Below, one piece after another: positions 37,731 to 39,229 of a stretch of DNA of 64,000 nucleotides; positions within the stretch are counted from its first letter, which is position 1; each line of letters begins with the position of its first letter. A program made the position numbers and the translations under genes. Below the pieces are notes generated by a model. It searched no databases, had not been told where the DNA came from, and saw nothing but the letters and a program-made list of their open reading frames with translations. The DNA is from Nanobdellota archaeon (GTDB lineage: Archaea; Nanobdellota; Nanobdellia; Pacearchaeales; GW2011-AR1), in the NCBI GenBank assembly GCA_018830525.1, contig JAHJSH010000035.1, positions 5,582-69,581 of the forward strand. Direction: 5' to 3'.

Positions 37731-37764
37731 GAATATTTAAAAACCTATTACCCTTAAAGTAATT

Positions 37765-37941
37765 ATGAGTATTAATTCTTTGGATGATGGATTAGAAGGA
37801 AAGTGGGTTATACTTCTTAATGAACATATTATAGATTCAGGAGAGAATATAAAAGAATTAGTTGAGAGAGCAAAAAAATTGTATCCTGATAAAAAATTAA
37901 CTCTTGCAAAAGTTCCTACCAAAGAATCTATGATTTATTAA
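37765..37941 (+). CDS. DUF5678-like small protein (58 aa, below the ORF-track cutoff)
   Basis: MSINSLDDGLEGKWVILLNEHIIDSGENIKELVERAKKLYPDKKLTLAKVP... Stop TAA lies 1 nt before the next ATG. Paralog of 38876..39115. Confidence 0.5.
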   Translation: MSINSLDDGLEGKWVILLNEHIIDSGENIKELVERAKKLYPDKKLTLAKVPTKESMIY

Positions 37942-37942
37942 A

Positions 37943-38371
37943 ATGGTTCTCTCTTTTAGATATCATGTTATCCCCGATGTAACAAATGGGGAGAAAAAAC
38001 CCACAATTCCTGTTGAGTTTAAATTAGAATCGGGAGGATATATTGAAGTAATGTGCTTAGTCGATTCAGGATCTGATGTAGTAGTATTGCCAAAAGGAAT
38101 TGCAGAATTACTCAATCTTAATTTGGGAGAAGAATCAAATTCATTGGGGATTGGTGGAGAAGTTCCAGTAAGACTTAGCAGGGCATCTTTTAGGATAAAA
38201 AAAGAGCATGGATACCATACTCTAACAGTTCCTGTTGAAGTTTTTAATACAGATAACATTCCAGTCTTATTGGGCAGACAGGGTTTTTTTGATAAGTTTA
38301 AGGTTACTATTGATGAACGGGATAAAAAGGTAATACTAAAAGAACATAGTTCTCGAATTTCTAGCAGATAA
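37943..38371 (+). CDS. retropepsin-like aspartic protease
   Basis: Active-site context VMCLVDSGSDVVVLP and a later ILGR-type flap region (VLLGRQGFF). Confidence 0.65.
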   Translation: MVLSFRYHVIPDVTNGEKKPTIPVEFKLESGGYIEVMCLVDSGSDVVVLPKGIAELLNLNLGEESNSLGIGGEVPVRLSRASFRIKKEHGYHTLTVPVEVFNTDNIPVLLGRQGFFDKFKVTIDERDKKVILKEHSSRISSR

Positions 38372-38439
38372 AAGAATTAATTCTAAGTTACACGAGTGAA
38401 GCGATGATGGGGTGGGAAAAGGGTTATAGGGGGGAAGAA

Positions 38440-38873
38440 TTAGTCTTCTTTTTCAAGATATGCTTCTTTTTTGTCTGGGTCAAAAACAAATTTTAGTTTA
38501 TTATTGATTAAGAAGTCAACACCCAGAATACTGGGGCTTGGAGAACTACAGGTGCCACCTATTGGATCAGAGCAAATTATTACCTCTGTGTTTATTACGA
38601 GTCCACTAATTCTAATTTTTGCGTCTTTTAATATTTTGGCATTCATTTGTGAGCCTCCTATATGTAGCGGTTCTCTTGAGGGAAAGTCTGCTAACCTTAG
38701 CCTAGATATCCTCTTTGTAGCTATGTCGTCATAGCCGATTATAGTTGTAGGACTTCCACTGTCTACTATCGCTTTAACTATTCCATTAAGATTAATTTCA
38801 TCAGCCCTTATAAAAAATTAGCAACTGGCCTTAGTCCTTCCGCAAAATCGTGAACTTTAAGTGGAATCCTCAT
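38440..38873 (-). pseudogene. retropepsin-like aspartic protease interrupted by a -1 frameshift (or programmed frameshift)
   Basis: ATG 38873 gives MRIPLKVHDFAEGLRPVANFL-stop. The -1 frame continues IRADEINLNGIVKAIVDSGSPTTIIG... to the stop at 38440. The junction is AAT TTT TTA TAA (A-run 38812-38817 on the plus strand). Confidence 0.55.
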
Positions 38874-38875
38874 TG

Positions 38876-39115
38876 TCAGAATAATATTGTGGTTCCTTCA
38901 GGATAAACGAATTCTATAAACATGAATTGTGAATCTTCCCCCTTGCTTTCCAGTATCTCTACAACTTTATTGATATCTTTATCAAAAGCTATAGGCCTTT
39001 CATCCTTTATAGCAACGAATTTCCCAGTTAAACTTTCTTCCCTTAATTTATTAATATTACCATAGAACCATTCGCTATTTTTTTCAAATTCATCAAAAGC
39101 TTGAGAACTATCCAT
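38876..39115 (-). CDS. DUF5678-like small protein
   Basis: ...LTGKFVAIKDERPIAFDKDINKVVEILESKG... Stop TGA lies 2 nt before the protease ATG. Confidence 0.55.
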   Translation of the reverse strand: MDSSQAFDEFEKNSEWFYGNINKLREESLTGKFVAIKDERPIAFDKDINKVVEILESKGEDSQFMFIEFVYPEGTTILF

Positions 39116-39229
39116 GGTTTCTTTATACTAATATTATTTATAAATGTTTACTCTCACAAGTTACACAAGAACCCCCCCGGCAAGTCAACCCAAGAAACAT
39201 TTTATAAAGTTACAAAACTTATTAATTAT

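Follow-up and report, generated by a model that had tools for sequence, protein, structure and literature searches.

The closest described counterparts of the locus reported here come from several systems. Retropepsins of clan AA (PF13650; APRc of Rickettsia conorii, PDB entry 5c9f) carry a single D-S/T-G-S/A motif per chain of ~140 aa and a second motif of the ILG.D type, and APRc has a membrane anchor. The heptamer U UUU UUA, read in the X XXY YYZ phase, is the one at the gag-pol junction of HIV-1. Archaeal -1 frameshifting is exemplified by fucA1 of Saccharolobus solfataricus, which uses A AAA AAT, and slippage on poly(A) tracts reportedly rescues endosymbiont genes. To our knowledge, no toxin of a toxin-antitoxin (TA) system is an aspartic protease. 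Small retropepsin-domain proteins have been listed near type III CRISPR loci of Sulfolobales, in a context that differs from the one described here. We analysed a 64,000-nt stretch (the window) of contig JAHJSH010000035.1 from a Nanobdellota archaeon (GenBank assembly GCA_018830525.1), in which two cassettes, module 1 and module 2, each pair a small DUF5678 gene with a retropepsin-like protease gene. The cassette proteases share both clan AA motifs, and the HIV-1 heptamer sits, in the same phase, exactly at a frame junction of the module 2 protease gene. We consider it quite probable that this gene is an ordinary young pseudogene within an uncharacterised gene pair, with the window holding two cassettes of distant subfamilies and the pair being TA-like.

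The interrupted protease gene of module 2

Module 2 lies on the minus strand. Its partner gene (38876..39115) is intact and encodes a 79-aa DUF5678 protein of the subtype that we call type B, ending in ...FIEFVYPEGTTILF, which matches DUF5678 (PF18929) with 35.7 bits (gathering cut-off 23.2) and keeps 17/17 of the positions that are invariant among 36 homologues. After a 2-nt spacer the protease gene begins with an ATG at 38873, and its zero frame (38808..38873) runs for 21 codons (MRIPLKVHDFAEGLRPVANFL) before ending in ...GTT GCT AAT TTT TTA TAA, with the stop codon at 38810-38808. Intact homologues have N-termini (MRIPLQVRDFAGGLRxMAxFLI...) to which these 21 residues align. The lesion itself is the heptamer T TTT TTA (38811..38817), a run of six T (T6, 38812-38817) followed by an A, which is one base short relative to the relatives of the gene; read on the minus strand from 38817 to 38811, the heptamer is in the X XXY YYZ phase and has the zero-frame stop codon directly 3' of it.

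The downstream part of the gene (38440..38817) lies in the -1 frame, which has a TAA just upstream of T6 and from there on runs uninterrupted through 125 codons (FFIRADEINLNGIVKAIVDSGSP...; FFIRADE...IVDSGSP...), with the catalytic Asp in IVDSGSP and a second motif SILGVDFL, up to a stop codon at 38442-38440. The earliest ATG, GTG or TTG in this frame is at 38646 (Met77), downstream of the catalytic Asp, so that a restart product would lack this residue and be inactive, which is why we regard the gene as a young pseudogene. The read-through product keeps every invariant residue of the family, and matches Asp_protease_2 (PF13650) with 17.2 bits, below the cut-off of 24.3. A preliminary description of this DNA, drawn from its letters, had correctly placed both modules, the 21-codon zero frame ending at AAT TTT TTA TAA and the -1 frame open to 38440. 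It had also predicted a trans-frame peptide ..VANFFIRADE..; canonical tandem slippage gives ..VANFLIRADE.. instead, since the UUA in the A site is read as Leu prior to the slip (VANFL-IRADE).

The heptamer in relatives and in the genome

In the closest relative, L016 (73% identity in the partner protein, 26/33 matching residues in the protease N-terminus), the protease gene is in frame and reads GTA GCC AAT TTT CTT ATA AAA GCT GAT GAA where the window reads GTT GCT AAT TTT TT- ATA AGG GCT GAT GAA, such that the window sequence at the junction is that of L016 minus one base. Another relative, L012, has an in-frame run of seven T (T7) at the same codons (ACT TTT TTT GTA), and L009 (CAC TTT CTA ATT), L013 (ACA ATT ATA TTA), L017 and L006 are without any slippery motif at the junction. 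At the protein level, 15 intact homologues (~143 aa) align over their full length with the read-through product and show no gap at the junction. As protein databases are biased towards intact genes, we added a reading at the DNA level, in which ~30 type-B protease genes were all found in frame at this position. A scan of genome contigs anchored on motifs downstream of the lesion yielded 18 type-B loci, 14 with intact full-length open reading frames (ORFs), and the heptamer together with the shift occurred at 0/18 of them. Retention of heptamer and shift by orthologues, which the preliminary description had proposed as a check, was thus absent from the ~30 type-B protease genes, with the closest relative reading AAT TTT CTT ATA.

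The loss of one base from AAT TTT (C/T)TT ATA AGG necessarily produces AAT TTT TTA TAA. As a result, the heptamer, its phase and the stop codon next to it represent a single event rather than independent coincidences, since all three follow from the 1-nt loss. Within the genome, in-phase TTTTTTA has 107 copies in 707 long ORFs, a frequency equal to that in phase 0, and the in-phase heptamer is neither avoided nor special and no commoner than chance. Folding of the RNA 3' of the heptamer, in segments of 67 and 126 nt, gave no stable hairpin and, relative to shuffled sequences, z values of 0.09 and -0.60, pseudoknots being outside the model; the earlier impression that no convincing stimulatory hairpin follows the heptamer is thereby borne out. 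Transcriptional slippage as a designed mechanism was also considered and rejected, the T6 run being short and not conserved.

Authenticity of the missing base

The lesion is found in assemblies other than that of the window. An ENA contig, L015 (ERZ27247117 k141_120150, 97.9 kb), encodes the exact 79-aa partner protein and shares 5,240 nt with the window at 100% identity, T6 included; its ends differ from those of the window contig, and it is therefore a separate assembly. A 68-aa 3' fragment of the module 2 protease is annotated as a gene on four contigs, among them L096 (ERZ928008 k127_97328, run ERR2191545), which likewise reads GCTAATTTTTTATAAGG with the same T6. The contig names, k141_ and k127_, are of the MEGAHIT type, from which we infer short-read data, and short-read consensus sequences seldom miscall runs of 6 nt. 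With two further MEGAHIT assemblies carrying the identical T6, an assembly error is unlikely, and T6 is very likely the true consensus. A pattern scan of metagenome contigs for the site with 5-8 variable bases returned no match. Separately, L096 matches the window over 569 nt and then diverges fully in its last 16 nt (570-585; window ~38305-38320), a divergence that is located within the 3' end of the protease gene of module 1 and could be either contig-end noise or a strain-level junction.

We also scanned the whole genome for frameshifts by coding potential. The scan was noisy and mostly picked up gene junctions, and a frame change was seen at only a handful of the ~1,600 in-frame coding runs of at least 6 nt. 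Only two homopolymer cases had a domain spanning the junction or split at it. At C3:3325-3352 the reading frame of a Nuc_deoxyrib_tr-like gene breaks where A8, G7 and T7 runs cluster, and the domain of this gene spans the junction, and at C26:5482-5488 a radical SAM gene is cut off from its SPASM domain at a G7 run. Three other candidates from the scan, C22:28960 (HepT), C28:80684 (L32e/L19e) and C20:21977 (proteasome/CPSF), proved to be ordinary gene ends and were discarded.

Lesions in related cassettes

Protease genes of this kind are broken in other lineages as well, each in a different manner. The protease-anchored DNA survey brought up an AAA-to-TAA nonsense change at codon 23 of a type-B protease (L090) and a 1-nt deletion at ~codon 55, with ATG-GGG for ATG AGG G (L093). 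The DUF5678-anchored survey added an 8-nt tandem duplication (CTATTAAG twice) at ~codon 10 (L053), an insertion of ~110 nt at 1930-2041 with an inverted repeat and stop codons (L055, genome G342), and a frameshift at ~codon 93 (L072). The preliminary description had named random disruption of orthologues as the mark of a pseudogene, and L053, L055, L072, L090 and L093 are disruptions of exactly that sort. Counting the window, there are six independent protease lesions, and the DUF5678 gene is intact in five of these cases (the window, L053, L055, L072 and L093); at L090 its position is beyond the contig end. Overall, ~6 of ~39 protease genes are broken, and in the source genome one of the three cassette proteases is broken, as compared with a handful of broken genes overall.

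The divergence of the module 2 protease relative to that of its partner, measured against five intact relatives, gives ratios of 1.06-1.19, within the range of 0.99-1.51 for intact pairs. Since the invariant residues are also kept, the lesion is recent. Long-standing neutral decay of the module 2 protease was considered and set aside, its relative divergence not being elevated.

Some details of individual loci are worth recording. In L090, a Woesearchaeota contig (CAYIVX010000044.1, positions 1-60), the TAA lies one codon from the stop codon of the window gene; this proximity may be a coincidence, or early truncation may be favoured as a route to silencing. The L055 insertion splits a DSGC-type protease gene, and with its inverted repeat AGGGCGGGAAAGCATCTC...GATGCTTTCTTAACCCCGCCCT it looks like a small element resembling a miniature inverted-repeat transposable element. 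In L075 (G202, reverse complement, 1665-1730), a type-B-like protease frame runs upstream into a plausible N-terminal hairpin without ATG, GTG or TTG; ATA stands at the expected start, and either the loss of a start codon or a non-canonical start is possible.

Distribution and coupling of the cassettes

DUF5678 occurs in 39/301 genomes of the phylum (13%) and in 37/224 genera, and the type-B protease in 3/61 close relatives. In the phylum survey, a retropepsin-like gene immediately follows DUF5678 in the same orientation at ~23/28 DUF5678 loci. Orphan DUF5678 genes number four (L051, L063, L065 and L071), and at L068 (G227) and L074 (G261), whose DUF5678 proteins end in ...GEIAMY and ...GSIAMY, respectively, the protease is encoded on the opposite strand, convergent with the DUF5678 gene, with 3' ends overlapping by 4-10 nt. 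Starting from the protease, we found DUF5678 directly upstream and intact at 14/14 evaluable type-B loci (L078 has an assembly gap), with a gap of -1 to 17 nt between the two genes at every one of the 14. The earlier suggestion of a tight, uncharacterised two-gene module is thus well founded in both survey directions.

The subtypes of the two proteins co-vary. DUF5678 proteins with the tail ...ETMIF accompany proteases with LLDSGAD and GRxGFFDKF, those with ...LSIL accompany IDSGCD proteases, and those with ...PEGxTLIL accompany proteases with DTGSPTT and ILGVDF. The neighbours of the cassette, on the other hand, vary at every locus and include AbiEii and RadC genes, a DNA methyltransferase gene or ribosomal protein genes. 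A literature search found no published account of a DUF5678-retropepsin pair, nor any for a retropepsin-like protein with toxin-antitoxin or for PDC-M52, a candidate system taken up below; the term DUF5678 itself appeared only in an unrelated plant context.

Predicted folds and family assignments

The AlphaFold model of the module 2 read-through product has a retropepsin fold with a predicted local distance difference test score (pLDDT) of 87.7. Foldseek matched it with a probability of 1.00 to HIV-2/SIV protease, to the RVP domain of DDI1 and to Rickettsia APRc; the best PDB match was HIV-2 protease, with a template modelling (TM) score of 0.73 (target-normalised), and the TM score against APRc was 0.61 (query-normalised). 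The profile of the protease family likewise matches the protease of feline immunodeficiency virus (E 0.002) and DDI1. The first 24 residues are modelled as a beta-hairpin with strands at 2-10 and 13-24, and the lesion falls within the second strand. The VDSGS catalytic motif is present in the proteases of both modules. The preliminary description had called both downstream genes retropepsin-like, which agrees with the Asp_protease_2 match of module 1 (27.3 bits) and with the fold match of module 2, and had called both small ORFs DUF5678-like, which agrees with their PF18929 scores of 50.5 and 35.7 bits.

The module 2 DUF5678 protein is modelled with a pLDDT of 89 as two helices and a small alpha/beta unit, and its conserved C-terminal tail has lower confidence (mean pLDDT of 66 over the last ~10 residues). 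A search of the PDB with DUF5678 brought up nothing significant, the lowest E values being 1.3 with Foldseek and 0.037 with the sequence profile, and family searches detected no DNA-binding family in either DUF5678 protein of the window.

Module 1, the third cassette and genomic context

Module 1 lies on the plus strand. Its partner gene (37765..37941; PF18929) encodes a 58-aa DUF5678 protein that ends in ...KVPTKESMIY and clears the gathering cut-off of 23.2 given above, and a 1-nt spacer separates its stop codon from the start of the protease gene (37943..38371). The latter is intact and encodes a 142-aa retropepsin-like aspartic protease with the motifs LVDSGSD and LLGRQGFFDKF, its Asp_protease_2 score being above the gathering cut-off of 24.3, and with a weak PADLOC match to PDC-M52B (E 1.4e-5). 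As read from the sequence, TATA-like boxes precede both cassettes. An A/T-rich box, atatttaaaaa, lies at 37733..37743 on the plus strand, ~27 nt before the start codon of module 1, and would be the putative promoter of module 1, with a short or absent leader; TTTATAAATA, at 39134..39143 on the minus strand and ~25 nt before the start codon of module 2, is the corresponding candidate promoter of module 2.

The two modules had been described as duplicated head-to-head, and neither part of that description stands. Their arrangement is convergent, tail to tail, with a spacer of 68 nt (38372..38439) between the stop codons, and each comes from a subfamily distant from that of the other. In BLASTP comparisons the DUF5678 proteins of the modules show no similarity to each other and the proteases align at E=0.19, and a recent duplication was rejected on these grounds. 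A third cassette is found on contig C18 (61145-61772, minus strand), at the extreme end of the contig, and consists of a 69-aa DUF5678 protein (26.8 bits to PF18929, cut-off as above) and a 141-aa retropepsin (LVDSGSD), with the genes overlapping by 8 nt; its protease and that of module 1 share 35% identity.

The source genome is a DPANN archaeal metagenome-assembled genome of 0.96 Mb in 35 contigs, and the relatives used here carry the labels Woese-, Pace- or Nanoarchaeota. The genes flanking the two modules are ordinary ones, for an MMR_HSR1 GTPase, TspO, a NUDIX protein and a DEAD-box helicase. The flanking GTPase is present in 35/38 genomes of the genus; among six relatives inspected for an empty site, none (0/6) has TspO, ThiF or either cassette beside the GTPase, and no insertion boundary could be defined.

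A probable young pseudogene in a toxin-antitoxin-like pair

In the explanation that we favour, the two modules are independent members of a widespread kind of cassette, and each comprises a DUF5678 gene and, within 1-2 nt of it, the gene of a retropepsin-like protease with a single catalytic Asp, which by analogy with retropepsins would have to form a homodimer for activity. In module 2, one base has been lost within the Asn-Phe-Leu/Phe-Ile codons (ancestral AAT TTT CTT ATA or AAT TTT TTT ATA), which truncates the protease after 21 residues and creates the in-phase T TTT TTA and TAA as a by-product. Full-length protease would then arise only by incidental, unprogrammed slippage, perhaps in traces and with no sign of selection; that such residual slippage at U UUU UUA-UAA still yields trace protease seems to us highly improbable. 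The protease would be the harmful, costly, toxin-like partner and DUF5678 its inhibitor, possibly by way of the conserved hydrophobic C-terminal tail, and a toxin-like protease would explain why the protease decays with DUF5678 persisting. The cassette would behave like a toxin-antitoxin or defence pair. We would suggest tentatively, as a possibility somewhat short of an even chance, that DUF5678 and the retropepsin form a new TA or abortive-infection class, with a dimeric aspartic protease as the toxin and the partner tail perhaps placed in the substrate cleft or dimer interface; module 2 would then be a toxin-dead relic and its DUF5678 gene an orphan antitoxin.

Two other origins of the frame junction have to be weighed. 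The first is programmed -1 frameshifting of the ribosome, the idea raised in the preliminary description, or else slippage during transcription, at U UUU UUA-UAA; either would deliberately set a low protease:partner ratio as at the retroviral gag-pol junction. The heptamer is in the canonical phase with the zero-frame stop codon directly 3' and a -1-frame stop codon 5', the downstream frame is intact, the tandem-slippage product would match VANFLIKADE of L016, and -1 frameshifting does exist in archaea, as in fucA1. Against this, the arrangement is not conserved, the relatives being in frame and most of them without a slippery motif (L009, L013 and L016), no hairpin signal follows, the motif is common in ordinary genes of the genome, the phase is automatic upon a 1-nt loss in these codons, and other lineages break the same gene by unrelated lesions; a T6 run is also shorter than the ~8-9 nt or more that is usual for appreciable transcriptional slippage. 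Lacking both conservation and a stimulatory structure, and with the heptamer explained as the by-product of a 1-nt loss, we regard a programmed shift as very improbable. A sequencing or assembly error, under which the true gene would be one base longer (T7 or TTT CTT), intact, and its homopolymer under-called in all three assemblies, is somewhat less remote and still improbable. The lesion does sit in a 6-nt homopolymer and the downstream frame is perfectly kept, and both C3:3325-3352 and C26:5482 likewise call for one added base, in runs of 7-8 nt. Weighing against an error are the identical T6 in three separate assemblies (the window genome, L015 and L096), the short reads implied by the MEGAHIT names, for which runs of this length are seldom a problem, and the small share of in-frame runs in this genome that show a frame change. 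Error and pseudogene had earlier been called equally likely; the two further assemblies weaken the former and the random lesions in relatives favour the latter.

A third alternative leaves the pseudogene in place and concerns the nature of the pair. The pair may not be TA-like at all: DUF5678 could serve a housekeeping or maturation protease as substrate, chaperone or adaptor, and in module 2 a redundant paralogue would have decayed neutrally. Redundancy is plausible in a genome with three cassettes, of which module 1 and C18 have intact proteases; moreover, no antitoxin-type DNA-binding domain was detected in either DUF5678 protein, DUF5678 has no PADLOC match and the proteases match weakly, and orphan DUF5678 genes exist. 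However, the three proteases are too divergent for obvious redundancy (35% identity or no detectable similarity), each co-varies with its own partner subtype, the patchy distribution argues against housekeeping, and the neighbours are variable, with one locus lying beside an AbiEii gene. We therefore find a role outside TA unlikely, if clearly less so than an error or a programmed shift. Several observations weigh against the explanation that we favour as a whole. The excess of protease over DUF5678 lesions in the unbiased survey (2/15 vs 0/14), though suggestive, is not statistically significant, and the TA reading draws solely on genomic behaviour. Reads or a sample may be common to the three assemblies, in which case a systematic error or a T6/T7 polymorphism is possible, and the two genes at C3 and C26 also seem one base short in homopolymers. 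A stop codon directly after U UUU UUA makes for a context that is genuinely prone to shifting, and a 125-codon frame that is open with all conserved residues fits a very young pseudogene and equally a gene expressed through slippage.

Implications

In AT-rich genomes, in-phase slippery heptamers arise automatically when a base is lost from codons rich in Phe, Leu and Lys, and false recoding candidates will therefore keep appearing. For the window, the headline claim of a retrovirus-style programmed frameshift in an archaeon is not supported. The remaining interest lies in the gene pair, in which an enzyme resembling HIV protease is encoded just after DUF5678, with a patchy distribution and several copies. 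The repeated loss of the protease by unrelated lesions among the loci surveyed, with the partner surviving, offers cheap genomic evidence for the protease as the costly, toxin-like half. If true, a TA or defence role would add aspartic proteases to the toxin chemistries.

Comparison with known systems

Relative to canonical -1 frameshift sites, including the retroviral site whose heptamer it shares, the junction in module 2 has no downstream stimulatory structure and no conservation among orthologues, its upstream product is merely 21 aa long and without a plausible function of its own, and the motif is accounted for by a 1-nt deletion. The leaky homopolymer pseudogenes attributed to Tamas et al. 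2008 are a closer parallel. As in those genes, module 2 combines a 1-nt loss at a T/A run with an AT-rich reduced genome and an ORF that is otherwise intact, and by analogy low-level slippage could likewise give some full-length protease; the module 2 run, however, is only 6 nt long, below the tract lengths that give appreciable rescue.

As for the enzyme, the cassette proteases are set apart from APRc in being soluble and stand-alone, without a membrane anchor, and from known retropepsins in general by an extra N-terminal beta-hairpin and by the position of their gene directly after that of a DUF5678 partner. Among the defence candidates of PADLOC-DB v2, PDC-M52 and PDC-M08, the type A proteases of the cassettes match the B components weakly (PDC-M52B, E 1.4e-5 to 5e-6; PDC-M08B, ~1e-3 to 1e-4). 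No PADLOC model matched the module 2 protease or any DUF5678 partner, so that only one of the two components of PDC-M52 is seen. PDC-M52 and PDC-M08 are themselves candidates only, and at these low scores membership of the cassette in either is not established.

The type II TA systems, such as VapBC and RelBE, offer the broadest resemblance. Like them, the cassette has a small upstream gene tightly coupled to an enzyme gene, apparently under its own promoter, a patchy distribution with several copies per genome (three here) and variable neighbours, and a repeated loss of the enzyme half with the small partner persisting, up to the presence of orphan partners. It may differ from them in its regulation, no DNA-binding domain having been detected in its DUF5678 proteins.

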